Shown: in pieces, positions 8,952 through 40,878 of the stretch
How the letters are laid out: the number at the start of each line of letters is the position of its first letter
Position numbering within the stretch: position 1 is the stretch's first letter
Source: an uncultured Chloroflexia bacterium
GTDB taxonomy: Bacteria > Chloroflexota > Anaerolineae > B4-G1 > SLSP01
Length of the DNA stretch: 64,000 nucleotides
Assembly (NCBI GenBank): GCA_963751345.1
Contig: CAVVUS010000038.1
Span: forward strand, 32,001 to 96,000
Direction: 5' to 3'
Made by a program: the position numbers and the translations under genes
Notes under the pieces: model-generated
The model's input: only the letters and a program-made list of their open reading frames with translations
What the model was told of the DNA's origin: nothing
The model's database searches: none

Positions 8952-8986
8952 TGCAATGTTAGTGGGACACGGAGGTAGTCCGTGCA

Positions 8987-9564: not shown

Positions 9565-10731
9565 ATGGACGTAATTGCCGAGCTGCTGGAAAAGGCGGAA
9601 GCTCAGGGGTTTCTGACCGTTGACGATGTGCTGGAGGCCCTGGCATCGCTGCGGGGGCAGGAATCCCTTGAGAGCGTGCTTGCCGAGCTTCGACAGGCCG
9701 GCGTTGAGATCGAGGCCACGGACGATGATGAAGAGGAGGATGAGGACGACGTCGATATTGACTTCGCAGAGTCGCTAGAAGAAGACCTCGATTTGGATGA
9801 GGACGTCTACAACCTCGACGGCATAGGTGTGGACGACACCGTAGCGCTCTACCTCCGTGAGATGGCACGGGTGCCCTTGCTCAGCAATGAGGAAGAGGTG
9901 AGCCTGGCAAAGGCGATCGAGCGCGGGCGTGAGACAGAGAGATTGCTGCAGGATGGGAGCCTTACGGTTGAGGCACGGGCGTGCCTTGATCAGATCGTTC
10001 TTGAGGGGTTGGAAGCCCGCGACCACCTCATTCGCGCGAATACCCGCCTCGTCGTAAGCATCGCCAAGAAGTACATCGGAAGGAACGTGCCCTTTCTCGA
10101 TCTGATCCAGGAAGGCAACCTGGGGTTGATGAAGGCGGTCGAGAAGTTCGAATACCAGCGTGGCTATCGTTTCAGCACCTATGCCACGTGGTGGATTCGT
10201 CAGACGATCACGCGGGCAATTGCGGATCAGGGTCGCACGATTCGGGTTCCCGTGCACATGAGCGACCGGATTCGACGCCTTTACCGGCGTGCCCAGGAGA
10301 TCGAACAGGAGCGCGGCACCCGGCCGACGCCCGAGGAACTTGCGGTGGAGATGGGCCTTGAACCTCGTAAGGTCCAGTGGATGATGCGGGTTTCCTGGCA
10401 GCCGCTCAGCCTCGAACGTCCCGTCGGAGAGGATGAGGACAGCGAGCTGAGCAATTTCATTGAGGACGATCAGACACCTACGCCTCCCGATACCGCCTAC
10501 ACGGGCATGCTTCGTGACCGCATTGAAGAGGTGCTCTCGACGCTGAATCCACGTGAGGTCCGCATTCTGCGCATGCGCTTCGGCCTGCACAATGGCCGTA
10601 GCTATACGCTGGAGGAGGTCGGTCAGAAGTTTGGGCTAACGCGCGAGCGAATTCGCCAGATTGAGGGGCAAGCGCTGCGCCGTCTACGACATCCAAGCCG
10701 GAGCCGCGATCTGAAGGACTACCTCAGATAG
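9565..10731 (+). CDS. rpoD: Group 1 RNA polymerase sigma-70 factor (RpoD/SigA)
   Basis: Acidic region 1.1, [50 protein letters not shown] and TLEEVG...TRERIRQIE. Confidence 0.95.
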
Positions 10732-19098: not shown

Positions 19099-19103
19099 AA
19101 GAC

Positions 19104-19162
19104 GAAGATCCTTGGGGTTTGCGGCCCGAGCAGATCGGGCTTGACACCCCAAAGGTCTCTTC
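19104..19162. terminator. Interrupted hairpin between convergent genes
   Basis: TTGGGGT...GCCCGA-GCAGA-TCGGGC...ACCCCAA, with outer GAAGA...TCTTC. Confidence 0.45.
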
Positions 19163-20729
19163 AGGCGCCGCCGGGCACGCTGGGGTATCCCGTGATCTTG
19201 CGGATCTCCTCGTAGAGCGGCTGCAGCCGATCGTACATCCGCTTGTAGACACGCTGGTAGAGGCCGTCGTAGATCCTGCGCGTCTGCGGATCGGGCTCGA
19301 AGACCCGGCCGATGCGGGTCATCTCACTCACGGCGGTTTCGAAGTCCGGATGGAGACCCAGGCCCACAGCCGCATCGATGGCCGCGCCTAGACCCGAGGT
19401 CTCGTAAGTGTGCGGGCGGGCCGTGTGCATCCCGAAGATGTCTGCCGTCAACTGCAGTGCGGCATTGCTCTGTGAGCCGCCACCGGATACCCGCAGTTCG
19501 GTGACTTCGATGTGGCTGCGCCGTTCCGTGCGCTCCTTGCCTTCGCGTAGTGCGTACGCCAACCCCTCCAGGATGGCCCTGTAGAAGTGGGCGCGCGTGT
19601 GAACACCCCCGAAGCCGATGATGGCGCCCTTGGCCTCCGGTCCCGGCACCCGGATGCCGGGCGACCAATAGGGCTGGAGGATCAGCCCCATCGAGCCCGG
19701 CGGGGCCTCGTTGACGAGGTCCTCGAAGAGGCTCTCCGGCTCGACGCCTTGCTCGTCGGCCAGCCACTGTTCGAGGTGGCCGAACTCTTCCTTGAACCAA
19801 CTTACCATCCAGAAGCCGCGGTTGATCCCGATCTCGAGGCTGTAGTGGTTGGGAATCGCCGACGGATAGGGCGGGATGAGCGGGATCACCTCGGCGTACT
19901 TGGTGTGGGTCGTGTTGATCGTCGCCGTCGTCCCGTAGCTCAGGCACCCGATGTGCGGCTGAACGCCGCCGGCGCCGATGACCTCGCAAGCCTTATCGGC
20001 CGCAGCTGCGATCAACGGGAGACCCTGGGGTATGCCCGTGGCGGCCGCCGCCTCACGCGTGATCGTGCCCAGACGCCCGGCCGGCGGCACCAGCCGGGGA
20101 AGTAGCCTCGGGCTCATCGGCACCGCGCGCCACTTCCAGTCCCAGGATTTGCTCCATGCCAGCGCTTTGTAGTCAAACGGAAGGTAGCCAACCTGGCATC
20201 CGATGGAGTCCACGAAGTCGCCGGTCAGTCTGTGTGTGAGAAAGCCGGAGAGCAGCAGGTACTTGTGGGTGCGGCGCCAGATGTCCGGCTGATGGGTGCG
20301 GATCCAGTTGGCCTCAGCCTCGGCCTGTAGGTAAGCGACCGTCTCGGACATCCCTGTGAGGCTGAAGAGCCGTCCCCACAGCCCTCCCACCGGTTTGAGC
20401 GATTCGACCCTCCGCTGATCCAGCCATACGATGGCCGGTCGGAGTGGCGTGCCTTGGGCATCGACGTTCACCACGGTGCCCCGCTGCGTCGTCAGGGCAA
20501 CACCCGCGATGGCGTCGCGTGGCACGGTCGTGGTCTGCCATAGCCTCTGGCACGCTTCACAGAGCGTCTCCCAATAGTACAGCGGGTCTTGCTCGGCCCA
20601 TCCGGGCTTAGGCGAAACGTAGGGCTCAATGAGGATTCGCGCCTTGCTCACGAGGTTCCCCGCCAAGTCAAACAGGAGCGCCCGCACGCTTTGGGTGCCG
20701 TTATCGATAGCCAGGATGTGATCTTTCAT
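19161..20729 (-). CDS. FGGY-family carbohydrate kinase
   Basis: [43 protein letters not shown] and SGGGSQS. Confidence 0.9.
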
Positions 20730-20861
20730 AGTCCCCCGCTTCGCGCATGACCGATCGGCGTAGTATAGGCAGGGCAGAGAGCCGGTCAACTGCCAGCTGT
20801 GGCTTTCGGCGATCCCCATATCGTAGTACTATGGTGCCCAATGTGGGAAAAGGAGACGACA

Positions 20862-21557
20862 ATGGATTACACCTACGAACAGATCGCCAAGATGATTGAC
20901 CACTCGCTGCTCAACCCAACCCTGACCGCAGACGACCTCGAGGCGGGCATTCAGGTTGCGCTTGACTACGACGTAGGAAGCGTCTGCATCATGCCCTACT
21001 ATCTCGGACGGTGCGCGGAGCTGCTCGCGGGCAGCAGCGTCAAGGCCAGCACCACCATCGGGTTCCCTCATGGTGGTCACACGACGTCGACCAAGGTCGC
21101 CGAAGCCCGGCAGGCACTCGCCGACGGGGGGCAGGAGCTTGACACCGTCGTCAACATCAGCAAGGTGCTCAGTGGCGATTGGGACTATGTTCGGGCCGAT
21201 CTTGGCGCCGTAATCGAGCTGGTGCATGGCGCGGGCCAGAAGGTCAAGGTCATTTTCGAGAACTGCTACCTAGAGGACGCTCACAAGATCAAACTGTGCG
21301 AGATCTGCGCGGATCTGAGAGCTGATTGGGTGAAGACCTCCACCGGATACGGCAGCGGTGGCGCGACGGATGCCGACCTCAGGCTGATGCGGGCGCACTC
21401 GCCCGACTACGTCCAGGTCAAGGCAGCGGGCGGCGTGCGGACGCTGGATCGCTTGCTCGAAGTCCGCGCCATCGGTGTGACCAGGGTGGGGGCCTCGCGG
21501 ACGGTTACTATGCTCAACGAGACCCGCGAGCGGCTGGGCTTGCCACCGGTAGGCTAA
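20862..21557 (+). CDS. deoC: Deoxyribose-phosphate aldolase
   Basis: IDHSLL, IGFPHG, ELDTVVN, KVIFENCYL, WVKTSTGY, VKAAGGVR and RVGAS. Confidence 0.93.
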   Translation: MDYTYEQIAKMIDHSLLNPTLTADDLEAGIQVALDYDVGSVCIMPYYLGRCAELLAGSSVKASTTIGFPHGGHTTSTKVAEARQALADGGQELDTVVNISKVLSGDWDYVRADLGAVIELVHGAGQKVKVIFENCYLEDAHKIKLCEICADLRADWVKTSTGYGSGGATDADLRLMRAHSPDYVQVKAAGGVRTLDRLLEVRAIGVTRVGASRTVTMLNETRERLGLPPVG

Positions 21558-22825: not shown

Positions 22826-25220
22826 TCAGTCCTCCGTTCGAGGAACCTGTGGCTCGGGGAGTTCGCAGCTAAGCTCCACACCCTCGGGGTGGAGGGCCAG
22901 GAACACTTTCTCACCGGACAGGGGCAAGTCTGAGAACCGAACACCTGTTGCGGCGTAGAGGGCGTTTGCGATGGCCGGTGCTGTTTGGACCATCACATGC
23001 TCGCCTACCCCACGAGCGCCCCAGGGGCCGTCGTCGAGGGGCGTCTCGACGATGTCGCCGTGGATTTCACGCGGCGCGTCCATAGCGGTGGCGATCTTAT
23101 AGTCGACAAAGCTGGCGTTGATCGCGCGCCCCGCTGCATCGAACCGCAGTCCCTCAAACGCGGAACTCATCCCGTGGACGGCGCCGCCCTCGATCTGGGT
23201 CAGGACCAAGTCCGGGTTGATGGCCTTTCCGACGTCATACGCACTGGCGATCTTCAGGATGTCGATGGCGCCCGTCTCAGTGTCGACCTCCAAGTCCACC
23301 GCCTGGGCACCCACCGTATAGTGCACCACGGCGCGGGTCCCCTGCCCGGTCTCGGGGTCAAGCCCCGTGACGTAGGTCGGCATGAACTTCCCCGATCCTA
23401 CGACGGGTCCACCCTGCCAACCCTCGAACCCCTCGTTGGGCAGGCCGTAGATGACCATATGATTGAGGGGCTGCTCTCTCTCGGTGCGATAGGAGACGAC
23501 GACGCCATCCTTGATGTCGAGATCGTCGGGGTCCTCGTCCCAGTACTCGCGCTACGATGTCGAGTATCTTGACGCGGGCATCCTCCGCGGCAGCCTTGAC
23601 CGCGTTGCCCATCGACCACGTGAGCCGACTTGCGACTGTTTGCCACTCATATGGGCTGTACTTCGTGTCCACGGGGTTGGCCGAGACCCGGACCCAGGCG
23701 TAGGGAACGCCCAGGGCTTCTGCGGCGATCTGGGCTGCGACCGTGAACGCCCCCTGCCCGATCTCCTGGCCTCCGACGTAGACGTTGACCGTGGCGTCCT
23801 CGTTGAAGCGGACAATGGCCGAGCTGCCGGGGTTCGGCGGCATCGCGGGCGCTTTCCACATGATGGCGATCCCTCTGCCGCGCTTCTTGGTCGGGCTCGA
23901 GGGTCTGGGACTGTCCTCCCAGCCGATGGCCTGTGTGACCCTGTCAATGCAGGTGGGCAGGTCTACCTGCGGCATTGCCATCCCGGTGAGGATCGTGTCG
24001 CCCGTGCGCACGCAATTCCGGCGCCGGAAATCGGCGGGGTCCATGCCGATCCTCGTCGCGAGCTGATCCATGATCTGCTCGATGCCCCAGTGAATCTCGG
24101 GCATGCCGAATCCGCGCATCGCGCTGCCGATGGGATGGTTGGTGTAAACGCAGAGAGAATCACCTTTGACATTGGGGACGTCATAGGGGCCGGTGCAAGA
24201 GTAACCCGCAGCACGGGCGATGTTGACGCCATAGTCGTTGTAGGCGCCACCGCCGAAGTAGTAGGCCACTTCCATTGCGAGGAGACTGCCTTCAGCGTCA
24301 CATCCAATCTTGTACATCGCCACGAGGCTCTGACGGACATTGGTGGCGACGAACTCCTCCTCACGCGTCATCCGCACCTTGACCGGGCGCCCCTTCACCG
24401 CTCGCGCCAGCAGGGCGACGTTGGCCTCGATGGAGATGCCGGCCTTGCCCCCGAAACCGCCGCCGACGTAAGGCGATATCACGCGGACGTCGCCATGGGG
24501 AATGCCGAGGCTTTGGGCCAGTAGGTCGCGCTGTGCGAACGGCGACTGCGAAGCTGCCCAGACGGTGAGCTCATCAGAAGGGTCCCATCGGGCGATGGCC
24601 ACGTGGGTCTCGATCGGGGCGTGCTGGATCTGGGGTAAGGTGTACGTTCCCTCGACGATGGCAGCGCAGCGGGGCCAGGCCTCGTCCACGTCCCCCTTCC
24701 GGAGCTTGAAGTGCTCCGAGACATTGGTGCCGGGCACAGGGAAGATGAAGTTGACGACTTCGTAATCACCAAGGTCGGGATGGATCAGGGGGGCATCCGG
24801 CTGCGCGGCCTCGTAGGGATCGAAGACCGGCGGCAGCGGCTCGTAGTCCACGTGCACGAGTGCCGCGGCGCGCTCGGCAATCTCCTCGCTGACCGCGACA
24901 ACGCCGGCGACCGACTCTCCCACGTACCTCACACGGTCGTAAGCAAAGATGAAGCGATCTTTGAGATAGAGGCCCAGGCGGGTGGGGTTGTCCTGCCCGG
25001 TCACCACCGCCTTGACGCCGGGGAGCGCACGGGCCTGGCTAATATCGATGTTCTTGATCAGGCCGTGGGCGACGGGGCTGTGGATGATCTTGCCGTAGAG
25101 CAGGCCAGGCCCAAACGCCATGTCGTCCACGAACCTGGCGGAGCCTGTCACTTTGTCAACGGCGTCGACGCGCCGCACGCTTTGGCCGACAGGGCCACCT
25201 GTTTGCTTGGTGGGCATCAC
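22826..25220 (-). CDS. Xanthine dehydrogenase-family molybdopterin-binding (large) subunit, frameshifted near 23550
   Basis: RVDAVDKVTG, QHAPIETH, VGGGFGGK, AMRGFG, EIGQG, QTVASR, DVGKAINP, QIEGG and GARGVGE (catalytic Glu). Confidence 0.92.
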
Positions 25221-25240
25221 GCCATCCTCCTCTCAGCCGG

Positions 25241-25711
25241 TCAGGACAGCTCCGAGGCAGCCTGGACCGCCTCAATGATCCGCAAATAGCCCGTGCAACG
25301 ACACAGGTTGCCGACCAGCGCGGTGCGGATCTCGTCTTCGGTCGGATGGGGAACACGATCGAGGAGCGCCTTCGCAGACATGAGCATGCCAGGGGTGCAG
25401 AAACCGCATTGGATGGCATTGTGCTCGATGAAGGCTTCCTGGAGCGGGTGTAGGCTGCCGCCCGCACTGAGGCCCTCCACAGTCTCGATCTCAGCGCCAT
25501 CGGCCTCCGGCGCAAGTACCATACACGAGTTGACAGGCAGTCCGTTCACGATGACCGTGCAGGCGCCGCACTCTCCATTCTCGCAGCCCCTCTTGGGACT
25601 GGTGATGCCGAGCGACTCTCGAAGCACTTCCAGCAAGGTCTGGTTTGACCTGACGGCAACGGTGTAGGGGTCGCCATTGACCGTGATCGAGATCTCATGT
25701 AGCATCGGCAA
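25241..25711 (-). CDS. Xanthine dehydrogenase-family 2Fe-2S subunit
   Basis: GCENGECGACTV...NSC, QCGFCTPG and GNLCRCTGY. Confidence 0.95.
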   Translation of the reverse strand: MPMLHEISITVNGDPYTVAVRSNQTLLEVLRESLGITSPKRGCENGECGACTVIVNGLPVNSCMVLAPEADGAEIETVEGLSAGGSLHPLQEAFIEHNAIQCGFCTPGMLMSAKALLDRVPHPTEDEIRTALVGNLCRCTGYLRIIEAVQAASELS

Positions 25712-25717
25712 CTCCTT

Positions 25718-25775
25718 CGTTTGAGCGTTTCAACGTTGACGCGTTGGGACGTGCTAACGTGTCAACGTGGAAACG
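25718..25775. repeat. Degenerate 8-bp periodic repeat (CGT-N5) forming a hairpin
   Basis: CGT occurs at 25718, 25726, 25734, 25742, 25750, 25758 and 25766, an exact 8-bp period. ACGTTGACGCGTT pairs with AACGTGTCAACGT. Confidence 0.75.
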
Positions 25776-26643
25776 ATCCTCTTGATGGCCCGGCGGCTGA
25801 GGGTAATGACCATCGCCTGGCGGTACTCGAGCCCGGATCGGATATCGGAGATCGGACAGCAGCAGCCATAGGCCGAGGCGGCGGCACGGTCGATGGCCGT
25901 CATCGTCGAGGCTGTGTTGCAGGATGGCCTCCGACTCGGTCGATCGCAGCGGCGTAGGCCCGACGGCACCGAGGGCGAGGCGCCAAGCATAGGTGCCATC
26001 CGTCTGGTGCTGCCATCACGGCGACACTTACGATGGACAGATCGCCCGCCTTGCGCCTGCTCAGCTTCTCGTGGTAGCTAAGCGCTCCGGCGGGAGGCGT
26101 GGGGATCATCAGCCCTGCGACAAGCTCGCCACGACGCAGGGCGTTGTGCCGCGGCCCGACGAAGAAGTGGGAGACCGGCAACGAACGGTCTCCCTCTGGT
26201 CCCCGGATCAGCACCATAGCCTCGAGGACGTAGAGCGCGGGCGCGGTGTCGGCGGCGGGCGAGGCAGTGCAGATATTCCCCCCGATCGTCGCGCGGTTCC
26301 TGACTTGTTCGTTGCCCACCGAGGCCGCTGCCTGTGCCAGAAGCTCCCAGCGGCTCCTTACGATCTCGGACCTTGCCAGCTCATTCATGCTGACGGCAGC
26401 GCCGACGCGCAGACAGGTCGACGGAGCGTTGCCACAACCGGGTCCGCCGTCAACACACAATAGGTCGTGCATGCCGGGCAGGCCCTTGATATCGACCACG
26501 ACGTCGGGCGCCAGACGACCATCGCGGATGAGTGGGATCACGTCGGTGGTGCCGGCGACGGGCACCACGATTCTGCCCGGTTGGGCAAGAAGCTCGAAGG
26601 CTTCCTCGAAGCTCGTCGGTCGGTGGTAGTCAAATGGCTGCAT
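25754..26643 (-). CDS. Xanthine dehydrogenase-family FAD-binding subunit, frameshifted near 25900-26000
   Basis: MQPFDYHRPTS, VAGTTD, QVRNRATIGGNICTASPAAD and C-terminal PISDIRSGLEYR. Confidence 0.9.
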
Positions 26644-26703
26644 CGCGCTCGCCTCCTGCCCCGCTGGAGACCGGACCGCGGTCCGGTCTCCATCAGGTAC
26701 GAC

Positions 26704-28045
26704 TTACTCTGTCGCGACGTTTCCGGGTGGAAAGAGGACGAAAATCAGGTTAAGCAGTATGCCGACGACCGCACCGGTAGCGATAGCGGGGAGCCCGTCC
26801 GGGAAGATACCGGGGACCGTGATCGCGATGAATCCGCCTCCCAGGATCTGCCCGCCGATCGCGATGATCGTCACGACGGCACCGACGGCCAGTTGGCGAG
26901 GATCAAAGAGGTTCACCTTCTCTGACTGGATCAGCGCGATACCTTGCATTCCGATCACGCCGAAGAGGTAGATGGCGAGACCCCCGGTGACCGCGGTCGG
27001 GATCGTGTTCACCATAGCCGTGAGCTTGCCGATGAAGCCAAGGAGTATGGCGATCGCCGCGGCCATCGAGGAGTGCGGGGCCGGAGTAGTTGCGAGTGAT
27101 GGCCATCAGGGAGTTGTTCTCGCCGTAGTTTGTCCCAGCCACGCCGCCGAAGAGCCCGTTGATGAAGTCGCCCAGGCCGTCCAGTACCAGGTTCTTGCCG
27201 ATGTGCTGGCTCAGCTCGTAGCGCTTCTTCCCCAGGTTATCGGCCAGGGTGTCGACGTAGAGGCTGATCTGGTAGAGGTGCGCGGTCGACTCCGGGATGG
27301 TTGCGATGGCGATAACTGCGATGGCAGCCACCGACTCCCACGCCCTGGGATCCCCGAACGCGGGTAGGGTGAACCTCGGGATCGCGAAGAAGCTGGCGGC
27401 TCCGACCGACGTCAGGTCCACCAGGCCGAAGGGGATGCTCACGAGGTAACCAAAGACCGCGCCCAAGAGAATCGGCAAGAGCCCGATGAAGCCTCTGCCC
27501 TGCAGATAGACCGAGAAGACGATCGTGGCCAACAGGGTCAGAATGGCGACGATCCAGTTGGCGGACGCCATATCCAGAGCAGAGCCCCCCAGCGTGACGC
27601 CGATGACCAACGCAACGGACCCGGTCAGCACAGGCGGGAGAACCTTGTCCAGGAACGCCTTGCCCGCCCAGACGATGATGAAGCCGACCACGATGTTGGC
27701 CAGGCCGGTGGCTACGATACCGACCTGCGCGAGGCGCACGGCCTCGCCGGCGTATTGGCCGAACTGGGCGTGCGTGAGTGTGAGCGTCGCGGCGATGTAG
27801 CTGAATGATGAGCCGTAGTAGAGTGGGATGAACTTGCCGATCCACACGTACGAGAGCACCAGTGCTACGGCGGTCGCCACGCCGGATACCGTCAGGACGG
27901 TGCCGACATCAAAACCTACAAGTAGTGCAACGAGAACGGTCGCGGGGAACATCGTCAGCACGTGCTGGAAACCGAGCAGCACGAGCTGGCCCACCGGGGG
28001 GGCGTCGTTAGGAAGGAACCCCCACACCTTGCGCTTCTCTGCCAT
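26704..28045 (-). CDS. NCS2 nucleobase:cation symporter, UraA/PyrP-like, frameshifted near 27065
   Basis: GFQHVLTMF (QH motif), YGSSFSYI, PPVLTG, IPESTAH and the NAT signature TNYGENNSLMAITRNYS. Confidence 0.9.
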
Positions 28046-28183: not shown

Positions 28184-28534
28184 CTAGAGCGGCTCATACT
28201 TGAGCCCGAAGACCGGCTCGCCGGACACATAGCGTACCGGCTCCCAACTGGGCTTCAGCGCGATGCCGGTATGGATACCTTCGAGGGACTCAGCCTTGAT
28301 CTGTCCCATGGCCTTGATCCCGTTGTCGAACTGCGCAATGCCGATGATCAGGAATCGCTCGTCGAACCCCCAGGGAAGGTTGAAGATCTGCGTGTAGGCC
28401 AGCAGCGTCGCGTTGCCCTCAGGTGCGATCTCCTCGAAGTCCCTATGGTGGCACTCCAGGCATCGTTCGTGTCGTGGGTAGTGGATGTGCCCGCAGTGCT
28501 TACACTTGTACCCCGTGATCTTGATCTCACTCAT
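28184..28534 (-). CDS. DUF35 Zn-ribbon/OB-fold protein (thiolase partner)
   Basis: CKHCG...CLECH zinc ribbon followed by an OB-fold (AYTQI). It lies immediately downstream of the thiolase gene. Confidence 0.85.
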   Translation of the reverse strand: MSEIKITGYKCKHCGHIHYPRHERCLECHHRDFEEIAPEGNATLLAYTQIFNLPWGFDERFLIIGIAQFDNGIKAMGQIKAESLEGIHTGIALKPSWEPVRYVSGEPVFGLKYEPL

Positions 28535-28535
28535 C

Positions 28536-29762
28536 TCACACCTCTTCCCGGGACGCCCGCTTCAGCACCGTGGCCAGGACGTTGTTGCCGAACCCGCCGA
28601 AGTTCACGGCCAGACCCATCCTGAGCATCCTTGACCTGGCGGTCTGCCGGAAGCTCGTGTCGAAGCTGCCAGGTCAGGTCCACCACCTGTGCGACGCCGG
28701 TGGCGCCTACGGGATGCCCGCGTGCCTTGAGGCCGCCGGACACATTGATAGGGATCTTGCCCCCAAGCCGGGTCTCGCCTCCGAGGGCAGCCTTCCCACC
28801 CTCGCCCTTGGCGAAGAAGCCAACGTGCTCGCTCTCCGCGATTTCCAGGATGGTGAAGGCGTCGTGGAGTTCGGCCACGTCGACGTCCTCCGGTCTCGCC
28901 TTCGCCCGAGCAAATGCCTGTCGAGCGGCCAAGGTGACGGCCTTCAGGTCGGTTGGGTCATCACGCTCCTGTAGCGTGTGGGTGTCGGTCGCCTGTCCGA
29001 TCCCCGCGACAACCACGGGTATCCTCTTCGTCAGCTCGGCTGCCATAGCCAGCGGGCAAAGGAGCACGGCGGCAGCCCCGTCACTGACCGGGCATGCATC
29101 ATAGAGGTGCAGCGGGTCAGCGACCGTGCGGGTTGTTGACGACCGAGTGTGGGCTGTCCAGGATGCCCTCCTTGGTGATGAGCATCTCCACGTGTGCGTA
29201 GGGGTTGAGTGCGCCCATCTCCTGGTTCTTGATGGCGACGGCCACGAGCATCTCTCGGGTCAGCCCGTACCTCTCCATGTAGAGCCGGGTGAACATCCCC
29301 GCCATCCCCGGCAAAGTGATGCCGTAGGGGTACTCGACGCGAGGGTGGGTCAGCGTGGCCACGAAGTCGGTGGCACGCCAGCCCGTGACCTCGCGCATCT
29401 TCTCCCCCCCGGCAACGAGAACCACGTCGGCGTAACCCGAGGCGACAGCCTGCACCCCATTCTTGATCGGCGGAGGCCCCCGAGGCCGGCCCGTTCTCGA
29501 CGAGGTCGGCTGCCGCGGGTAACAGCGCCAGGCGGTCCACCAGCGCGCTCGCAATGCCCGTCTGGTGTTGGAGGATTCCGCCCCCCATATTGGCCACGTA
29601 GACCGCATCGACCGCGGCCTTGTTCCCCAGAGCCGCATCGTCCAGGGCCTTGAGCGAGGCATACGCCAGCATATCCACCAGGGTATCCTGGTCGCGGCGA
29701 CCAAAGGGGATCATGCCCACGCCGATGATCGCGACCTCCCTGCCGTACGTCGTGTCTGCCAT
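28536..29762 (-). CDS. SCP2/archaeal-type thiolase-fold protein lacking the nucleophilic Cys, about 3 frameshifts
   Basis: VAIIGVGM, VENGPASG (canonical VExxCASG), GGEKM, NPYAH, ELHDAF, SGGLKARGHPVGATG and C-terminal VNFGGFGNN. Assembled from ORFs 29031..29762, 29117..29704 and 28531..29067. Confidence 0.85.
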
Positions 29763-29765
29763 GCC

Positions 29766-30457
29766 TTACCTCCCCTTCAGCCCTGCGATTTTCTCGCGGA
29801 TCATCGCCTCATCGGCGATGACGATCTCTTGCTCCGCAAGGGCCAGCAGATCCTCGGGAACGGGCCGGTCACCGACTACGAGCCGATCCTTGCTGGCGAA
29901 GTAGAGGTCGCGGGTCAGCCGGTACGATGGCGCGCCACCCAGTTCGTGCGGAATGGTCGTCGGCTCCAGGCCATATTCGGTCATCCAGCGGCGGAACCCG
30001 ATTGGGCTCTCGGCGACGATCAGTACCTCATCCTGGCCCAGATACTCGATGTGATGCTCCATCTTCGCCGCGAAGAGGTGCGCGCCGATGCGCAGCCCGC
30101 GATCGATGGCCAGCGTGTGCAGGCTCATACCCGTCCCCTGGGTGTACATCCGGCTGTTGACCAGCCCGGCCAATATGCCGTCGACCTGTCCGATCAGACA
30201 GAACTCGTTCTGGACGCGGTAGTACTGCCACGCGAGAAGCTCGGCGTAGACGCGGGCGCCCACGACATTGTAGTAGTCCCGGTCGATGAAGAGCGTCGGA
30301 TGCACGACCTTCAGCAGCGTCGGCACGTCCTCGCGCTGTCACCTCGCGCACGACCATACGCTTCCCATTGGCCAGCGTGATGACCTTGGGAGGGTAGGGC
30401 GGTTGCGGGATACTCCGGCGGTCGGAGGATGGCCTCCAATTCCATGTCAACTGCCAT
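29766..30457 (-). CDS. Uncharacterised GNAT-fold-like protein, frameshifted near 30340-30420
   Basis: ATG at 30457 follows AAGGAG. Pieces include KVITLANGKRMVVRE, LIGQVDGILAGLVNSR and SLHTLAIDRGLRIGAHLF (resembles GNAT motif A, R-G-x-x-I-G). Confidence 0.55.
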
Positions 30458-30461: not shown

Positions 30462-31341
30462 CTAGCTCCTTGCTCTTACCTGGCGGTTGAGGCTCTCAAC
30501 GTGTGCCGGGTTGTAGGCGTCACCGAACTTGGTCTTGGGCAGGCCGGCCTTCGTCGCCATCAGCGGCGTCGTAGCGATCGTCCTCCAGGAAGGCGACACA
30601 TCGGCCGATACTCGACTCCCCGTCGACGAAGCGCCACGGGAAGAACCCGATCTGCACGCGTTGGTTGACCAGCAGGTCGATCTCCCCGCCGATACACTCG
30701 GCGTGGATGATCCCCTCGGGGAACATCTCGATGTGCATCAACTGATACTTCGTGTCATCGAAGACGTCGGCCAGACCGGCGCCGTACTTCGCCTGGAAGT
30801 GTGCCTCTGCCTCACGCGCCTGGCGCGGCATCCAGTCGCGGATGATGGTGTTCATCGGATGGTCCGCGCTGCCGCAGTCGACGCCGATCCAGCGCAGCTT
30901 CTTCTCCTTGGCCCAGATCGCGAACTCACGGTCGGGTCCGGGGTGCTGGACCATGTAGCGGATCTCGTTGGCGGTCGGCATGTCCCACCCGAAGTGGTGG
31001 AAGCCCGTGTGGATGATCAGGATGTCGCCCTCCTTCACCTCCACCCGATCCTCGATCATCTTCGACGTGTAGATGTCGTAATCTGCGACGACGTCCGAGA
31101 GATCGACGACCGCGGCCTCGTGGACCAGGTAGTCCATCTGAAGGTCGGCGATGTCCTTGCCGGCGGTGAAGAAGTGGATCTCACCGTCGAGATGCGTTCC
31201 CAGGTGGTTGGAGTGGGTCACCACCTGACCGTTGGCGCCGTTGGGCGCCAGTCGCTTGAAGTACTTCACCTGGAGTGGCTCATAGGTCGGCCACGGCGGG
31301 GTACCAATGCCCAGCGGAATAGTAAGGTCCAGTAGCTTCAT
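30462..31341 (-). CDS. Cyclase family (kynurenine formamidase/isatin hydrolase-like) metal-dependent amidohydrolase, frameshift near C-terminus
   Basis: LLDLTIPL, HSNHLGTHLDG (HxGTHxD), ILIIHTG, IGVDCGSADH, HAE and GESSIGR. Confidence 0.9.
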
Positions 31342-31354: not shown

Positions 31355-32773
31355 CTATCGAGTTCTTGGGTCTATGCAGACAGCCTTCAGTGCATCGAAC
31401 GCCTGTTCGAAGCATTCCCGTGGAGCGCGGACGAGTCCGGCCCCCACCATTCCGATGCCCGGTTGCTTGTGGGCGATGCCCGTGTTGATGAAGGGCAGGA
31501 TGCCTGTAGCCATCACCTTGCGCACGTCAATGCCCAGCGGCGTTCCGCGGAAGTCGAGCACGGGCACGGTGAACGACTCGTGCTCTCCAGCCGTGATCTC
31601 GTACATTTCGCTCGTGACACTCAACGCTAGGCTGGCGGTGCCGCCGACAAAGCGCACGATCGCGGGAGCTGCCGCCATCGCAAACCCTCCGAGACCGCCC
31701 GTCTCGGTGATGCTGGAGTCCCCAATGTCGGGGTTGGCATCCTCTGCTGTGAAACCCGGGAGCCACATACCATCGACGACCGGCGCGGGCGCGGTGAACC
31801 ACCGGTCGGGAAGGCCGGCAACGCGTATCCCGAAGTCGGTTCCGTTCCGCGCCATCACGGTGACCAGCGAGCTGCCCTCAACCGTCTCTGCCGGCTCCAG
31901 CATCGCCTTGACCGTAGCCATGGAGAGGTTGAGGAAGAAGTGATCGTTGCTGTCGATGAACCGGAGCACACGGCTGGCGATGGCCTTGGTTGTTACCCCG
32001 ATCAGGGTCGGCGCGATCTGGCGTATCAGGAGCGACGTGGCGGCCCGGTTGCGGTTGTGGACTTCGTCGCCCATATGCAGGGCCTGTGCGATGATGCTAC
32101 GAAGGTCGATGGGGCCGGTCTTGGCGATCGTCCGTCGCAGCGTGGGATAGAGGTCGGACTCCATCCACTTCAGGTGGTCGAGGACGTCATCGCCATAGGC
32201 CCCGTAGCGGAGCACGCGGCCCAGGCCCTCATTCTGAGTCGCGTAGGCCCTGTTGCCGAAGGTCTCGTTCTCGACGATGAACACGGGCATTGAGGGCGAG
32301 ACGATGCCGGCCATGGGCCCTACCGTGTGGTGGTGATGACAGGGGTCGAATGCGATGGCGCCGGACGCGGCGAGGTCGGCGGCGGCCTCGTACGACTCCG
32401 CCCAGCCCTCATAGACGATCGCCCCCATCACGGCGCCGCGCTGGGGCCCACACATCCGATCCCAGGTGATAGGGGGCCCGGCGTGAAGGATCATGCGTTC
32501 CTCCATACCGGGGATCGTGTTCTTGGCGACGCCCATGCCCACCAACAGCGGGCGGCTGCTGCGGATCCTATCGATGGCCTCTGCGTTGGCCGCATCGATG
32601 TCGACGCCCTGCCTGGTGGTGGTCAATGGCACAAATCCCGCTAGCGGTGGACGCCAGTCGACGTGGATCACCTCCGCACTCTGAGCCCTGAGACTCTCGC
32701 TGAAGTCCTCCAGGCCGACGTTGATGGCCCTAATCGGTTGGTCGAACAGGTCGTGGATTGCCATAGTCTTCAC
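31355..32773 (-). CDS. DUF1116 family protein (YlbE/YahG; AllG-like)
   Basis: VDWRPP, ILHAGPP, PCHHH..VGPMAG, NEGLG..LRYG, MGDEVHNRN, NDHFFLN, RNGTDFGI, DIGDSSITE and INTGIAH. Confidence 0.92.
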   Translation of the reverse strand: MKTMAIHDLFDQPIRAINVGLEDFSESLRAQSAEVIHVDWRPPLAGFVPLTTTRQGVDIDAANAEAIDRIRSSRPLLVGMGVAKNTIPGMEERMILHAGPPITWDRMCGPQRGAVMGAIVYEGWAESYEAAADLAASGAIAFDPCHHHHTVGPMAGIVSPSMPVFIVENETFGNRAYATQNEGLGRVLRYGAYGDDVLDHLKWMESDLYPTLRRTIAKTGPIDLRSIIAQALHMGDEVHNRNRAATSLLIRQIAPTLIGVTTKAIASRVLRFIDSNDHFFLNLSMATVKAMLEPAETVEGSSLVTVMARNGTDFGIRVAGLPDRWFTAPAPVVDGMWLPGFTAEDANPDIGDSSITETGGLGGFAMAAAPAIVRFVGGTASLALSVTSEMYEITAGEHESFTVPVLDFRGTPLGIDVRKVMATGILPFINTGIAHKQPGIGMVGAGLVRAPRECFEQAFDALKAVCIDPRTR

Positions 32774-32793: not shown

Positions 32794-34379
32794 CTAAGCC
32801 AGGACGTAACCCACGAGGCGTGCTGCCGCGGCGTTTGTCGGTAGAACGATGACGCCGGCAGACCGCAGCACCTCTTCCTGTGCCGTGGCATTCTGCGGGT
32901 CCCCATCGGTGCCGCAGACGTGGGCGACAAAGATGATCGACCTACCTGCTTCCGCCAGGAACGACTGGGCCTCCCGAATCGCCTCCACCGCGGCGCCGGC
33001 GGGATCGGGATGCACTCCGTAGCCCAGGACGACGTCAAGATAAATGACGGCAGTTTCGGGATCGCGCGCCTCCTGCACGATGCGCCGGTTGCGGAGCGAG
33101 GGATCAAGCATCGGGTGCAGTCTCCCGACCGTGAACTCGTCCTCGCCAAGATCGATTGCCGTGTGACCCTGACTGAGCGTTCGAGTCCGGCAGCCTTGCG
33201 CTCTCGTCCACCGGCGCGTTGGACAGGATCTGGCCCTTGCCCAGCATCTTGCCCAAGATCAGCTGCGTCTCATAGCAGAAAGTGCCACCACTGAAGAGAC
33301 CCCTGAAATAGCGCTGGCGGCGATGCAGCGAGGAGCGGAGGTCCGGAGCGCGGGCCCGTAAGCCTCCTGTCGCGATCGCGAAGTTCCGTCAACGCCGCCT
33401 CCGGGTCGGAGCCCACCGCCAGTTCGGCAGCAATCACGGCGGCTTTCTCCAGCGTTGAGGCGGCGATGGCCCCGGCTTGCCTGATCGGCTTCTTCTTACC
33501 GCCCAGGAAGCAGACGACCGTGGGTTTCTCACTCTCTTTCAACTGCCCGAGCACCAACTCGGCGACCTCTGGTGCGGGAGGTTTGGACACGAGGACGAGC
33601 ACCCGGGTATCGTCGTCGGCCTGCAGTGCCTTGAGCCCCTCCAGCATCATCGTGCCACCGACGGCAGCCGAGAGGTCCCTTCCGCCGGTGCCGATCGCCT
33701 GGGTGATGCCGACACCACGCCGCGCCAATTCACAGGTCACAGCCTGGAGTCCGGTGCCGCTGGCTGCGACGATGCCGATACCTCCGGGAGTTGGGGGTGT
33801 CCTGAGAACCTGATTGGCAAAGCCAAGGGCCACCCCGTTGATAATGGCTGTGCCCGCATCGGGGCCCATCACGAGCAGGCCCCGGTCGCGACCGACCTGT
33901 TTCAGGCTTACCTCATCCTGGAGCGATACGTTGTCGCTGAAGAGGAAGACGTGTAGATTGTGGTCGAGCGCCTCGCGGGCAACACCCGCGGCGTACTGGC
34001 CCGCGACCGATATCAGCGCGATGTTGGCGTGTTCCAGTTGCCTGACGGCCCGATCGATCGTCTTGGGTGGGATTGCCCGGCCTTCTGTGCCCGGCTTCGG
34101 CGCCCGCGACGCCTTGAGGGCGCCAGAGGCATGTTCCAGGGCCGCATCGGCTGAGGCTGCAGACGCGGCCCGCACAGAAATGACGAGGTCGTCGGCCGAT
34201 GCAGCCGCCGCTTCCGGGGTCAGCAGGTCCGCATTGGTAAGGATGCCCTTGTTCGCCGCCGTTCCCATAACGACGGCGGCGTCCGTGATCCCTTCGAGGG
34301 TCAGCAGTACCTGGGCAATCTCGAGAAGCGTCATGGAGTCATAGTATTCGCCGCGTTTCACGTCGGTCTTGGTGATCAA
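32794..34379 (-). CDS. fdrA: FdrA family acyl-CoA synthetase-like protein (YahF/AllF-like), frameshifts near 33170-33360
   Basis: YYDSMTL, VMGTAANK, LISVAGQYA, FSDNV, MGPDAGT, ASGTGLQ, GTGGRDL, LVSKPP, GLFSGGTF, DLGEDEFTVGRLHPMLDP, LDVVLGYG and CGTDGDPQ. Confidence 0.92.
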
Positions 34380-35261
34380 AGTGACCTCCTCACAGCTTCA
34401 TAGCCACGTATGAATCCGTGGAGCATATCGAACCCCGACGTTGCGCCGTGGGCGAGGACGTCTGTGACAGCTCGCTTCAGATTGCCGTCCGGGCCCAGGC
34501 CCAATGTGTCCAACAATCGGTGCCATCGCTCGTCCGCCAGGCCCTCGCTTGCGGCATAGAGAAAAGCGCGACTCAACGACGTGGTGAGAGGATAGGCTGC
34601 CTGTGTGATAGCACGGCAGAGCGGCTGTCGATGCGGGTGATGTCCGGCCCACATGGCGAGCATGATGCCCGCCAACACGTCGTCCCCCGAGGGTGTCAGG
34701 CCGACGCCAAGCCCTGCCATCCGCCCGGCGGCGCTGGAGATCGCAGCAACGTCGGGTGACCCGCCCGTCGTGGGCCTGCCAAGCGCGGCTACGAGCTGCG
34801 TCAGGGAGGAGTCGAGGGCTTGAGCGGCGGCCCGCGCCTGTCGGTGAGGGGCCGACTGGGGCGCCGTGGTTACGAGTGAGCCTAGCTGTTGGAGAGCGAT
34901 CTCAGAGATGCGGAGATCCTCCCATCGCGGCCGTGGGTCCCAGACGGTCGTTCGTGCGGTGATGGTGAGCGACCAGTGACCGATCCTCAGATCCATCGGT
35001 GTCTTCCACGCGGGGACATCCCTACTCCTCTGGCCTGAGCCAGGATGTGATGGCGGGGGCAGGCGCCGCACCACGATGTGGAAGGGGCCGTTGCCAAGCT
35101 CGGGCTCGACGAGCGCCACGATCTCGTGGCCCGGTCGTGATGTGCCCAAGGCGATGAGGTCCACCGCTCTCCTGAAACGGGCCAGGCGTCTGAGAGCGAC
35201 AATCTCGGAACCAAAGCGGTCGAGAACAGGCGCGCTGATGCTGAGAACCTCTGCGTGGCAT
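34376..35261 (-). CDS. DUF2877 family protein (YlbF/YahE; AllH-like); start uncertain
   Basis: GNGP, GLGVGLTPSGDDVLAG, TTSLSRAFL and HGATSGFDMLHG. The ORF-track extension to 35494 runs through a terminator and structured RNA and is probably non-coding. Confidence 0.85.
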
Positions 35262-35293
35262 AAAACGGGCCACCGATTGGTGATCGGTGGCCC
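35262..35293 (-). terminator. Intrinsic terminator/attenuator directly upstream of the DUF2877 gene
   Basis: Minus strand reads GGGCCACCGAT-CACCA-ATCGGTGGCCC-GTTTTA (11-bp perfect stem plus U-tract). Confidence 0.75.
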
Positions 35294-35602
35294 ATAGGCA
35301 TCACTTGGGGGGGTGGGGAGCGTCGCCGCAACCGGTGGCTTGAGAGCGAGTCCAGGCCCCTGGCTCGCCGTATTCAAGCGACGATCGCTGCGGGCCCCTT
35401 CACTGCGAAGCGTCCCGGTGCGGAACTCCGCCGGGCATTTCCGTTCCCCTGGTTGGGCGTGCGTCTCGTGAAAAGGGCCTCTCTGGAGGGGCACGTGACT
35501 CTCGCTCTCGGGATAGGGAAGCTTGACTCATCACAGGCCGAATGCAGCATCCTGGGGCGGGACCGGGCCTCTTTCCTGGCGGCGCACGATCCGCTGCCCT
35601 GC
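35294..35602 (-). ncRNA. Candidate structured leader RNA/ncRNA of unknown family
   Basis: It lies between a consensus promoter and a terminator. Nested helices: GAGAGCGAG/CTCGCTCTC, GCCCCT/AGGGGC, GGCCCTTTTCAC/GTGAAGGGGCC, CCCGG/CCGGG and GCGGA/TCCGC. Confidence 0.5.
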
Positions 35603-35680: not shown

Positions 35681-36421
35681 ATGGTTGCCGCCGATCCACA
35701 CTACACTTACCCACGGCGCCGGGTCCTCCGATCGCTCATACAGCGTGTCACCCGGTTCGTCTTCGCCGTGATCTCCGACTTCCACATCGTGGGTCGCGAG
35801 AACTTGCCTCCTTCTGGGCCGTTGCTGGTCGTCAGCAACCACTTTAGTTTCCTCGACCCTGTGGCGATGCTGACCGTATCGCCATGGCCGATTGAGTTCG
35901 TGGGTGGTTTCACGACCCCCAACGCCCCAAAGGGCGTCGGGGGGTTCCGCAAGCTCTGGGGCTACTATCCTGTCTATCGAGGTACTGGGTCACAGGTTGC
36001 CTTCCGCGCGGCTCAAGCCATCTTCAACCAACACGGCGTCCTGGGCATCTTCCCGGAGGGGTCGAGCGCTCACGCCCTGCTCCGCCCGCCCAGACCTGGT
36101 GCGGCCTTCATGGCGGCCCGATCTGAGGTACCCATCCTGCCGATGGCTATGGATGGCCTGATCGATGTCTTTCCCAGGCTAAGACGTGGCCGACGCCAGC
36201 ACGTGGTCGTGCGCGTGGGCGAGCCCATCGGTCCCTTCTCGGCCCCTGGGCGCGGCCGCCAGCGCCGCGCGCGGCTGGAGGAAATCGGCCACGAGATCAT
36301 GAAGAGTATTGCTGATCTCCTGCCCGCCGAGCGTCGTGGCTACTATTCCGATGATCCCGACGTCCGGGCTGCGGCTGCGGGCCTGGACTATTTTCCGTGG
36401 GATGAAGAACCTGAAGGCTGA
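35681..36421 (+). CDS. plsC: 1-acyl-sn-glycerol-3-phosphate acyltransferase family protein
   Basis: NHFSFLD (HxxxxD), IFPEGS, GAAFMA and PILPMA. Confidence 0.85.
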   Translation: MVAADPHYTYPRRRVLRSLIQRVTRFVFAVISDFHIVGRENLPPSGPLLVVSNHFSFLDPVAMLTVSPWPIEFVGGFTTPNAPKGVGGFRKLWGYYPVYRGTGSQVAFRAAQAIFNQHGVLGIFPEGSSAHALLRPPRPGAAFMAARSEVPILPMAMDGLIDVFPRLRRGRRQHVVVRVGEPIGPFSAPGRGRQRRARLEEIGHEIMKSIADLLPAERRGYYSDDPDVRAAAAGLDYFPWDEEPEG

Positions 36422-39348: not shown

Positions 39349-40872
39349 GTGATAATGAACCACAGACTACGTACTTACTGGTTTCGTGCCGGCATGGTCG
39401 GGGTGGCGTTGGCGCTTTTCGCTGCGGGCTGTCGCCGTGAGGTGATTGTCCCGGGCAGTGAGCTAGGCGGGACGCCGGGCACCCCGTTTACCGTCGGTGG
39501 GGCCCGCGGCGCACAGCAACTGGAGAGTACCGGCCCGCTGATTCCTCCAACCGCGACCCCAACGAGGATGCCACCGAAGACCACGGCGACGGAGTATACC
39601 GTCCAGTCCGGCGACACGATGTACGGCATCGCCTCGGCCTATGGGACGACGATCGATTCCCTCGTGCAGCTCAACGGGCTGGCCGACGCGGACCACTTGG
39701 CGATTGGTCAGGTCCTGAAGATCTCTATGGACGCCGAGCACGTCGGCCCCAGCGATCCCTTGATCCCCGACAGCGAGCTGGTCTACGGTCCGAGCTTTGC
39801 CGGTTTCGACATTGCGGCGGAGGTCGCGCGCCATCCGGGCTATCTTGCCGGCTACTCTGAGCTGGTCGGAGCGCGAGAGCTGACCGGCGCCGAGATTGTG
39901 GCTCTGGTAGCTGAGCAGTACAGCGTGGGCCCCCGTCTGCTTCTGGCAATGCTCGAACTGCGCGGAGGCTGGCTCTCCAATCCCACGCCTTCCCCGGACC
40001 AACAGCTCTTCCCTCTCGGATATCAGCGCGGCGAGTACTGGGAAGGGCTCTACTATCAATTGTGCCAGGCGGCCAATGCACTGAACATCGGTGCCTATGG
40101 CTGGTGGCTTGACACGCTGTGGCTGGTGCAGACCGGGGATGGGGCCTTCATCCAGTATGCGCCAGGGCTAAATGCAGGCACAGCGGGTGTCCAGAAGATG
40201 CTGGCCGATACGGCGGATTCGTATGAAACGTGGCTCGCCGACATCAGGAGGTTTCGCGAGATCTACACAAGCCTCTTTGGCGACCCCTTTCAGTATGCGG
40301 TCGAGCCTCTGATCCCGATGAACACCCAGGCACCGACGATGGAACTCCCCTGGGCCGAGGATGAGACCTGGTACTATACCGGAGGGCCGCACCCGGGGTG
40401 GGGGAGCGATGGAGCAGGATCCGCGATCGACTTTGTCACCGACGAGGAGAACATCGGGTGCGCCGTCAGCCAGCGGTGGGAGACAGCTGTCGCCGCCGGA
40501 ACGATCGTGGAAAGCCAGGACGGGATGGTGCTGGAGGACCTGGATGACGATGGATTCGTCGGCACGGGATGGGTCGTGCTCTATATGCACGTAGCAGCGG
40601 AGGGACGCGTCGAGATCGGAACGCACGTCGACGTTGGCGACCCCATAGGGCACCCGTCATGCGAGGGAGGAGTGTCCGACGCATCTCATCTTCACCTCGC
40701 CCGCCGCATGAATGGCGTCTGGATCGCTGCGGATGATCCGGCCTACCCGATGTCGCTCTCCGGATGGACTCCTGTGCGCGGCGTGGAGGCCTACGAGGGC
40801 ACCCTTGTCCGCGGCGATGAGGTACGGACGGTCTGCGAGTGCTGGGAGGCCATCAACGCGGTCAAGCGCTGA
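39349..40872 (+). CDS. LysM plus M23-family peptidoglycan endopeptidase, probable lipoprotein
   Basis: Lipobox FAAGC, LysM YTVQSGDTMYGIA...NGL, and M23 motifs H...AIDF, LYMH and HLH. Confidence 0.85.
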   Translation: MIMNHRLRTYWFRAGMVGVALALFAAGCRREVIVPGSELGGTPGTPFTVGGARGAQQLESTGPLIPPTATPTRMPPKTTATEYTVQSGDTMYGIASAYGTTIDSLVQLNGLADADHLAIGQVLKISMDAEHVGPSDPLIPDSELVYGPSFAGFDIAAEVARHPGYLAGYSELVGARELTGAEIVALVAEQYSVGPRLLLAMLELRGGWLSNPTPSPDQQLFPLGYQRGEYWEGLYYQLCQAANALNIGAYGWWLDTLWLVQTGDGAFIQYAPGLNAGTAGVQKMLADTADSYETWLADIRRFREIYTSLFGDPFQYAVEPLIPMNTQAPTMELPWAEDETWYYTGGPHPGWGSDGAGSAIDFVTDEENIGCAVSQRWETAVAAGTIVESQDGMVLEDLDDDGFVGTGWVVLYMHVAAEGRVEIGTHVDVGDPIGHPSCEGGVSDASHLHLARRMNGVWIAADDPAYPMSLSGWTPVRGVEAYEGTLVRGDEVRTVCECWEAINAVKR

Positions 40873-40878
40873 ACCCTT

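Follow-up and report, generated by a model that had tools for sequence, protein, structure and literature searches.

A conserved clade of DUF35-associated thiolase-like proteins with proline in place of the nucleophilic cysteine and a possible role in malonyl-type thioester decarboxylation

We analysed a stretch of 64,000 nucleotides from an uncultured Chloroflexia bacterium (assembly GCA_963751345.1, contig CAVVUS010000038.1, positions 32,001 to 96,000), here called the window, which carries on its minus strand a thiolase-like gene (28536..29762) with a proline at the position of the nucleophilic cysteine. This proline is characteristic of a conserved clade from about ten phyla, whose genes adjoin a stand-alone DUF35 gene and belong to an operon that most likely serves the degradation of a nucleobase. 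Taken as a whole, the protein may act without thiolysis, generating a thioester enolate and decarboxylating a malonyl-type coenzyme A (CoA) ester or transferring its carboxyl group. We assign this reading a probability of roughly 0.4.

The gene starts with the ATG at 29762, its opening frame reads MADTTYGREVAIIGVGM...AADLVENGPASGASA, and a protein of about 407 residues with Thiolase_N and Thiolase_C_1 domains results if it is read through extra single bases near 29468, 29128 and 28624. Residue 92 is a proline in the motif VENGPASG, encoded by CCG at 29489-29487. Re-reading of the minus strand gave the same codon as a previous sequence-only reading of this DNA, which had also stated correctly that all three bases differ from those of the cysteine codons TGC and TGT, excluding a single-base error; the orthologues carry the proline as well. 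HMMER alignments placed Pro92 opposite the nucleophilic Cys of 7YVY and 6ESQ and, a point overlooked previously, showed Ala in HDAF where the 6ESQ motif HDCF has Cys. The protein consequently lacks both the nucleophilic Cys of the CxS motif, which forms the acyl-enzyme of thiolases, and the acid/base Cys of HDCF. The oxyanion-hole histidines of HDxF and GHP were reported as retained, and this holds: ELHDAF and GHPVGATG were found in the window gene and in all five full-length orthologues, and H299 and H349 are invariant.

Since proline provides neither a thiol nor a backbone NH, the covalent part of the thiolase reaction is abolished in two ways. In PhlC, the acetyl-Cys carbonyl is held in an oxyanion hole built from the main-chain NH groups of Cys88 itself and Gly385, as described in a passage of PMC6392133. 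Judged from its sequence, the thiolase-like protein cannot form an acyl-enzyme and cannot be an acetyl-CoA acetyltransferase; the non-thiolytic role suggested earlier thus follows from the loss of the nucleophile.

A DNA search covering 30 related genomes revealed full-length matches in five relatives (G002, G015, G009, G013 and G003) and a fragment at a contig end of G010. Each full-length relative has an intact open reading frame (ORF) of 396-407 codons with VENGPASG, ELHDAF and GHPVGATG. Close homologues bearing a Cys were looked for among the best 120 matches from 5.8 billion proteins (79-100% identity; those with names come from Anaerolineae or Chloroflexota). Instead, 119 of them carry Pro in [VI]ENGPASG and the remaining one did not match the pattern, while ELHDAF is present in 120 and GHPVGATG in 118. 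Pro92 is likewise invariant in an alignment of 16 orthologues from many phyla (A4, 52-79% identity), as are E89-N-G-P-A-S-G95, H299-D300, G348-H349-P350 and N386-F-G-G-F-G-N-N393. In total, [VI]ENGPASG was found at 29 loci from Chloroflexota, Bipolaricaulota, Verrucomicrobiota, Bacillota, Acidimicrobiia, Thermotogota, Elusimicrobia, Ignavibacteria, Spirochaetota, Heimdallarchaeota and others. In an even sample of the phylum, an orthologue (E<=1e-140) was detected in only five of 300 other genomes; the gene of the source genome itself fell below this threshold because it is fragmented.

Membership in the thiolase fold was supported by Pfam (Thiolase_C_1 2.1e-42 and Thiolase_N 8.3e-27 for the intact G002 protein) and by an AlphaFold2 model with a predicted local distance difference test score (pLDDT) of 83.4. 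The model shows an ordinary archaeal-type thiolase fold, closest among solved structures to 7YVY, 6ESQ/6ET9 and 4YZO, with template modelling (TM) scores of 0.84-0.90 to 7YVY/6ESQ and 0.81 to 4YZO; residues 131-148 and 208-210 are modelled with low confidence. Nineteen positions are invariant in the orthologues but shared by <15% of the Cys-type relatives, and G91, P92, S97, R123, H139, Y144, L150, F157, N210, F387, F390, N392 and N393 among them lie in or beside the active-site motifs. Because the former motifs are invariant and these clade-specific invariant positions have been added, the active site is, as far as sequence conservation tells, remodelled and not decayed.

This pattern bears on a rather unlikely alternative, a dead scaffold, in which the thiolase-like dimer and DUF35 would merely hold a GNAT-fold (GCN5-related N-acetyltransferase) protein or an AllFGH-like enzyme encoded in the same operon, as the inactivated HMGS-like subunits PhlA and MucA do for the Friedel-Crafts acylases. 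Both catalytic Cys residues are gone, the genes are tightly ordered with gaps of 1-3 nt, and known DUF35 complexes may hold a thiolase-fold subunit that is inactive yet essential for assembly (parts of PMC12960953 and PMC6392133). A mere scaffold could drift, however, whereas here the motifs of the former active site are more conserved across phyla than any other part of the protein and have new invariant residues around them; moreover, some genomes have the thiolase-like gene and no GNAT-fold gene.

The wider family was represented by 50%-identity cluster representatives of at least 340 residues among the best 150 HMMER hits, plus the query (n=129). Outside the cluster to which the protein belongs, no relative exceeds 50% identity, and the nucleophile site is occupied by Cys in 85 sequences, Ser in 19, Pro in 10, Asp in 6, Gly in 3 and another residue or a gap in 6. 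In a FastTree phylogeny of 142 rows, all Pro rows and 14 Ser rows fall under one node with zero Cys members and weak support. An IQ-TREE analysis (LG+C20 with posterior mean site frequencies, quick mode) of 84 rows, for which every second orthologue locus was sampled and 34 of the 85 Cys rows were drawn at random, recovered a split with a Shimodaira-Hasegawa-like approximate likelihood ratio (SH-aLRT) of 99 that unites 18/18 Pro and 15/19 Ser rows with no Cys row; the orthologue clade of 10 rows also received 99. By these trees, the protein falls within a well-supported Cys-less (Pro/Ser) superclade. Some Ser-type relatives (loci L058 and L066; proteins P0134, P0161, P0172, P0210 and P0225) have about 500 residues versus the usual 380-400 and may in part be DUF35 fusions. 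AllG and FdrA genes lie near L058 and L066 in the absence of xanthine dehydrogenase (XDH) genes, and L058 also has a cyclase gene.

In the window, the three added bases break the gene into four minus-strand frames, which had escaped the sequence-only reading. Frame A (29466-29762) carries VENGPASG and continues into Arg-rich nonsense past ...GASA; frame B (29120-29476) holds the EKM/Thiolase_N portion (Thiolase_N 2e-11); frame C (28534-29139) carries ELHDAF and GHPVGATG (Thiolase_C_1 1.5e-38); and the final 34 residues (28539-28640) return to the phase of frame A. The surplus bases were located by alignment to the G002 orthologue (89% nucleotide identity). Over its entire length the window shows synteny with a single G002 contig (84-88% identity), and the comparison revealed 35 isolated insertions or deletions, none a multiple of three, of which 26 are single bases added in the window, just 10 of them beside homopolymers, and only three are deletions of one base. 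The insertions strike many unrelated genes, including those for the XDH molybdenum subunit, the permease, the GNAT-fold protein, the cyclase and FdrA (examples are 3559, 4399, 17091, 23546, 27067, 30338, 33177, 36732 and 57482). The pattern resembles a systematic insertion error of assembly, by which gene calls on the source genome would be fragmented.

Logan contigs from four public metagenome runs were placed on the gene, mostly 95-99% like the window. All four short-read contigs that span a site lack the extra base, at low depth (2.6-4.6): one of run X3 at 28624, one each of X1 and X4 at 29128, and one of X3 at 29468. A search of sequencing runs matched only small shares of words, 0.30 at most, and supports no claim on habitat. 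After removal of the extra bases, dN/dS versus G002 amounted to 0.061 (116 synonymous and 28 non-synonymous differences), and the neighbouring genes gave 0.02-0.12. The bias towards added bases across the window, the four contigs and this ratio together indicate that the three frameshifts are very probably assembly artefacts and that, by its substitution pattern, the gene is functional and under purifying selection. A true pseudogene in this strain, with real insertions and a dead gene, is highly improbable on the same evidence, in spite of three frameshifts within 1.2 kb of deposited sequence and of contigs that, being only 95-99% alike, may derive from sister strains.

The immediate partners of the thiolase-like gene are encoded on either side of it on the same strand. 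The DUF35 gene (28184..28534) starts 1 nt past the thiolase-like stop and encodes 116 residues with a Cys4 zinc ribbon and an oligonucleotide/oligosaccharide-binding (OB) fold (zf-ChsH2 6.9e-07); the four zinc-ribbon Cys residues are invariant in alignment A5. The GNAT-fold gene (29766..30457), with extra bases near 30338 and 30406, stops 3 nt before the thiolase-like ATG. Its product has 229 residues in G002, an RGLRxGA motif and no significant Pfam match. An AlphaFold2 model (pLDDT 87.7) gave Foldseek matches in the PDB of which those listed are all GNAT acetyltransferases or entries named uncharacterised or putative acetyltransferase (best E 2.5e-07), and names in the ESM Atlas also bear on the assignment. 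The pairing with DUF35 and a neighbouring GNAT protein, recognised before from the letters, is thus borne out by domain match, fold and adjacency across loci.

A scan of GTDB species genomes yielded 80 loci, at which the Cys site was typed by alignment (unreliable for L073 and L092) and the neighbours by custom hidden Markov models (HMMs). With many loci cut short, DUF35 is adjacent at all 29 [VI]ENGPASG loci and the GNAT-fold gene at 28, the single exception being a 1.7-kb contig; AllG was found at 15, FdrA at 15, AllH at 13, cyclase at 11, XDH at 16 and the NCS2 permease at 4. The corresponding numbers at 29 Cys-type loci are 17 for DUF35, one each for cyclase and XDH, and zero for GNAT, AllG, FdrA, AllH and NCS2. 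Together with the homologue motifs and the tree, these counts support the idea that the Cys-to-Pro exchange marks a conserved clade tied to the operon.

Pro-type relatives from archaea connect the substitution to another set of genes. At the nine Pro-type loci with other motifs, HMM reading of the neighbours did not find the GNAT/AllG set. Six of these loci carry VE[ST]GPSSG, four from named Thorarchaeota, one from an unclassified archaeon and one more. A gene for a biotin carboxyl carrier protein (BCCP) stands directly upstream of the thiolase-like gene in all six, and a gene for an OadA-like 5S carboxyltransferase (PYC_OADA and HMGL domains) upstream in five; the contig of the sixth is cut. 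The trio of OadA-like 5S, BCCP and Pro-type genes can be seen at L056 (5870-9155) and also at L033, L043, L045, L059 and the cut L036. A further locus with IDNAPASG (L054) lies between genes for an acyl-CoA carboxyltransferase/biotin carboxylase and for methylmalonyl-CoA epimerase/mutase, and a Thr-type locus (L029) has mutase and epimerase genes within 8 kb. Archaeal Pro-type genes thus adjoin carboxyltransferase, BCCP or methylmalonyl-CoA genes, a neighbourhood that links Pro-type proteins with carboxylated acyl-CoA substrates on grounds separate from the bacterial operon. The Thorarchaeota trio may represent a transcarboxylase or decarboxylase in which a thiolase fold replaces the 12S subunit.

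In the mechanism we propose, H299 of HDAF and H349 of GHP would bind the thioester carbonyl and stabilise the enolate. By adjacency, the thiolase-like subunit would act with the stand-alone DUF35 protein and, in most lineages, with the GNAT-fold protein as an acyl-CoA-binding partner. The role of a malonyl- or methylmalonyl-CoA decarboxylase, suggested from the letters, remains a candidate and a stronger one than before, since the enolate-stabilising His pair is kept and the archaeal Pro-type genes adjoin carboxylation genes. A wider and rather speculative extension, which we consider improbable, is that Pro-type proteins form a new class of subunits handling the carboxyl groups of acyl-CoA, with the thiolase oxyanion hole serving solely to generate or trap the enolate of acetyl- or propionyl-CoA. 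Bacterial members with DUF35 and GNAT would then decarboxylate a pyrimidine-derived malonyl-type thioester, and Thorarchaeota members would replace 12S beside 5S (OadA-like) and BCCP.

Several observations weigh against the decarboxylase reading. Known decarboxylating ketosynthase-type proteins have Gln, not Pro: in KSQ/CLF, Gln takes the place of the active-site Cys and the malonyl substrate is bound to an acyl carrier protein (ACP). Here, the residue is Pro and no ACP gene was found among the operon genes scanned; the protein may work in a similar way but is no member of that group. HDAF is not diagnostic, as Ala also occurs there in 24 of 85 Cys-bearing representatives, and pLDDT is <50 over residues 131-148, where the clade-specific H139 and Y144 reside. 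Acyl-CoA carboxylase genes also occur in the flanks of 4 of the 29 Cys-type loci, though 1.5-6 kb away. Pro requires 4 changes on the FastTree and on the IQ-TREE tree and may have more than one origin.

Further points concern the partners and the pathway. Four genomes of another family (G085, G169, G187 and G304), which are four of the five orthologue-positive genomes in the 300-genome sample, have a Pro-type gene and no GNAT-fold gene at E<=1e-30. Conversely, G264 (L100, G264:C18:13000-32000) has cyclase, GNAT and AllH genes without a thiolase-like gene. The GNAT-fold protein is therefore a frequent, not an obligatory, partner. The proposed substrate and reaction were deduced solely from motifs and gene neighbours, and the uracil/barbiturate role of the operon, described below, is itself just the leading candidate. 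The SCP2-thiolase-like protein TbSLP of Trypanosoma brucei (5AB4-5AB7), which binds malonyl-CoA, shows that a thiolase fold without the Cys can decarboxylate this ester, though slowly; it differs by a YDCF motif, the absence of DUF35 and only 22% identity, and its function is disputed. Its activity is very low (kcat 0.005 per s, as cited in a passage of PMC12329534), and successors of its authors now suspect an aldolase, according to the same passage.

Details of these loci concern the operon more than the reaction. In G169 and G187 the genes run cyclase, thiolase-like, DUF35, AllH; in G169 (L099, G169:C8:81000-100000), genes for XDH, CoxG and a PnrA/Bmp nucleoside ATP-binding cassette transporter lie upstream, the transporter taking the place of the permease. 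In all four genomes AllG lies on the same contig at a distance of 13-15 kb. At L100, a PlsC-like acyltransferase gene follows the GNAT-fold gene.

The operon of the window was delineated with the help of the intact copy in G002, where the order is AllH-like, FdrA-like, AllG-like, cyclase, GNAT-fold, thiolase-like, DUF35, NCS2, XDH FAD (flavin adenine dinucleotide) subunit, 2Fe-2S subunit and Mo subunit. All genes are on the minus strand of the window. Upstream of the GNAT-fold gene follow a cyclase-family (PF04199) gene for a metal amidohydrolase-like protein (30520..31341, Cyclase 1.8e-30, 292 residues in G002), an AllG-like gene (PF06545, former DUF1116; 31355..32773, 1.3e-98), an FdrA/AllF-like gene with CoA_binding and Ligase_CoA domains (32794..34379, split near 33177; the G002 copy scores 456 bits against NF004760 FdrA, over cut-off) and an AllH-like gene (PF11392, former DUF2877; 34376..35494, 2.5e-23). 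Downstream of DUF35 lie an NCS2 nucleobase permease gene (26700..28045, lower bound approximate; Xan_ur_permease, split near 27067), whose top-scoring NCBIfam model, uracil permease, stays under its cut-off, and the genes of a three-subunit molybdenum hydroxylase of the xanthine dehydrogenase family (22826..26643; FAD 25900-26643, 2Fe-2S 25241-25711, Mo 22826-25220), whose Mo subunit is split near 23546. The complete operon is also present in the cultured Anaerocolumna aminovalerica DSM 1283 (L030), where the thiolase-like, DUF35 and GNAT-fold genes occupy 7321-9653. Additional 'conserved families' obtained by all-against-all clustering of the loci turned out to be shadow ORFs of GC-rich DNA and were discarded.

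This gene content most likely points to the degradation of a nucleobase, with uracil or thymine, processed via barbiturate, as the leading candidate. First, the XDH-like enzyme would hydroxylate uracil to barbiturate. The ring would then be opened by the cyclase-family hydrolase or the GNAT-fold protein. Finally, the AllFGH-like enzyme could phosphorolyse the ureido group to carbamoyl phosphate, by analogy, because ureidomalonate is the one-carbon-longer homologue of oxalurate, the AllFGH substrate. AllFGH, an oxamic transcarbamylase, yields carbamoyl phosphate from an N-carbamoyl amide, as described in parts of PMC11326118; homologues of FdrA, AllG and AllH are present in the operon, whereas the E. 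coli system has no thiolase-like, DUF35 or GNAT-fold protein. For the known oxidative pyrimidine pathway, the literature assigns barbiturase to the cyanuric-acid-hydrolase family. The thiolase-like protein would dispose of the remaining C3 fragment by converting a malonyl-type CoA ester to acetyl-CoA (propionyl-CoA from thymine), and the irreversible decarboxylation may pull an unfavourable prior step, by analogy with the archaeal thiolase/HMG-CoA (3-hydroxy-3-methylglutaryl-CoA) synthase/DUF35 complex. Carbamate kinase (arcC) is encoded on another contig of the genome (366.5 bits, over cut-off).

An alternative is Cys-independent thiolysis or acyl transfer, in which the CoA thiolate, held in the thiolase-like site, directly attacks a ring or N-acylurea carbonyl, for example of barbiturate or ureidomalonate, so that the energy of the bond is kept in a malonyl-type thioester. 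The operon encodes two CoA-linked folds (GNAT and FdrA) with no classical CoA transferase or ligase for the C3 acid among its genes, and a thiolase fold ordinarily positions the CoA thiolate towards an acyl carbonyl. We nevertheless regard this route as unlikely, because Pro deletes the oxyanion-hole NH needed by the tetrahedral intermediate, a reverse N-acyl transfer suits the GNAT fold better, and the carboxylase genes beside the archaeal Pro-type members would be left unexplained.

Comparison with known systems places the protein next to archaeal-type thiolases. By sequence, the closest is the acetoacetyl-CoA thiolase PFC_04095 of P. furiosus (7YVY, E 2.8e-81), followed by the thiolase of the M. 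thermolithotrophicus thiolase/HMG-CoA synthase/DUF35 complex (6ESQ/6ET9, 3.3e-71). HDxF, GHP and the pairing with a small DUF35 protein are common to all, at 38-41% identity. The two thiolases, however, carry the nucleophilic Cys, and 6ESQ also the Cys of HDCF, where Pro and Ala stand here; and the third partner in M. thermolithotrophicus is HMG-CoA synthase, in contrast to a GNAT-fold protein within a catabolic operon. ST0096 of Sulfolobus tokodaii (4YZO, about 37% identity) is also Cys-less, with Ser of NTSGSG opposite Pro92 and HDM- replacing HDCF. Proteins with the ST0096 motif fall in the Cys-less superclade described above (SH-aLRT 99), 4YZO itself being outside the tree. No function is given for 4YZO in the relevant passages of PMC6392133.

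Two repurposed thiolase/DUF35 systems invite comparison. PhlC and MucB of the Friedel-Crafts acylases (PhlACB, MucABC) likewise belong to an acetyltransferase/DUF35 complex with a third subunit and a rewired active site, but have retained Cys and GHx while HDxF is gone (parts of PMC12960953), whereas here the reverse is found, with Cys lost and both HDxF and GHP kept. The steroid side-chain aldolases Ltp2-ChsH2(DUF35) and Sal-Shy(DUF35) share with the present pair a Cys-less thiolase fold and DUF35, and perform non-thiolytic C-C chemistry on a CoA thioester via an enolate, using the first-position Tyr of YDHF/YDCY (PMC12329534, in part). From this likeness, the sequence-only reading had drawn an analogy to a retro-aldolase, which is not supported, as His of HDAF takes the place of the required Tyr; an aldolase of the Ltp2 type was rejected for this reason. 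A retro-aldol or other C-C lyase reaction on a 3-hydroxyacyl-CoA is altogether very unlikely. While 6OK1 was matched by sequence (E 8.1e-28), DUF35 is here a free protein and not a domain of a preceding MaoC-type hydratase, the operon has no hydratase or steroid gene, and the aldolases form separate clades far from archaeal-type thiolases according to PMC12329534, whereas the present protein is nearest to 7YVY (40% identity) and 6ESQ (38%). Judged by its motifs, the combination of lost and kept residues differs from that of thiolases, Friedel-Crafts acylases and steroid aldolases, and in the open-access literature, supplements being outside the search, no paper on this clade or module was found.

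Other genes of the window surround the operon. A PlsC-type acyltransferase gene (PF01553, about 35700-36420, plus strand; G002 copy L015:17194-17931) is divergent from the AllH end. Near the Mo-hydroxylase end (about 19100-21500), genes for an FGGY sugar kinase and deoxyribose-phosphate aldolase (DeoC, over cut-off) fit nucleoside catabolism. An ADP-forming acetyl-CoA synthetase with CoA_binding_2, Succ_CoA_lig and ATP-grasp_5 domains (701 residues in G002) is encoded about 6 kb from the operon (about 40700-42800, minus strand) and could convert operon-derived acetyl-CoA to ATP. Farther away (about 3400-8300, minus strand), a hopanoid-type cluster, read from the G002 copy, comprises genes for squalene-hopene cyclase, a radical S-adenosylmethionine protein with DUF3463, a PNP_UDP_1 phosphorylase, an NAD-dependent epimerase/dehydratase and DUF116.

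Many members of the family are named 'acetyl-CoA acetyltransferase' in their sources. Lacking the nucleophile and the backbone NH that goes with it, these proteins cannot catalyse that reaction, and the name introduces a spurious thiolase step when the metabolism of Anaerolineae, Bacillota, Acidimicrobiia, Asgard archaea and others is reconstructed. The clade adds a fourth rewiring of the thiolase/DUF35 platform to those of true thiolases, Friedel-Crafts acylases and steroid aldolases. It marks an uncharacterised ten-gene operon conserved across phyla, which may provide the genes still lacking from a pyrimidine pathway that conserves energy under anoxia, and the presence of this operon in cultured A. 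aminovalerica DSM 1283 turns the matter into a directly testable question. If the proposed function is true, acetyl-CoA, and hence ATP, would be recovered from uracil under anoxia on top of carbamoyl phosphate.

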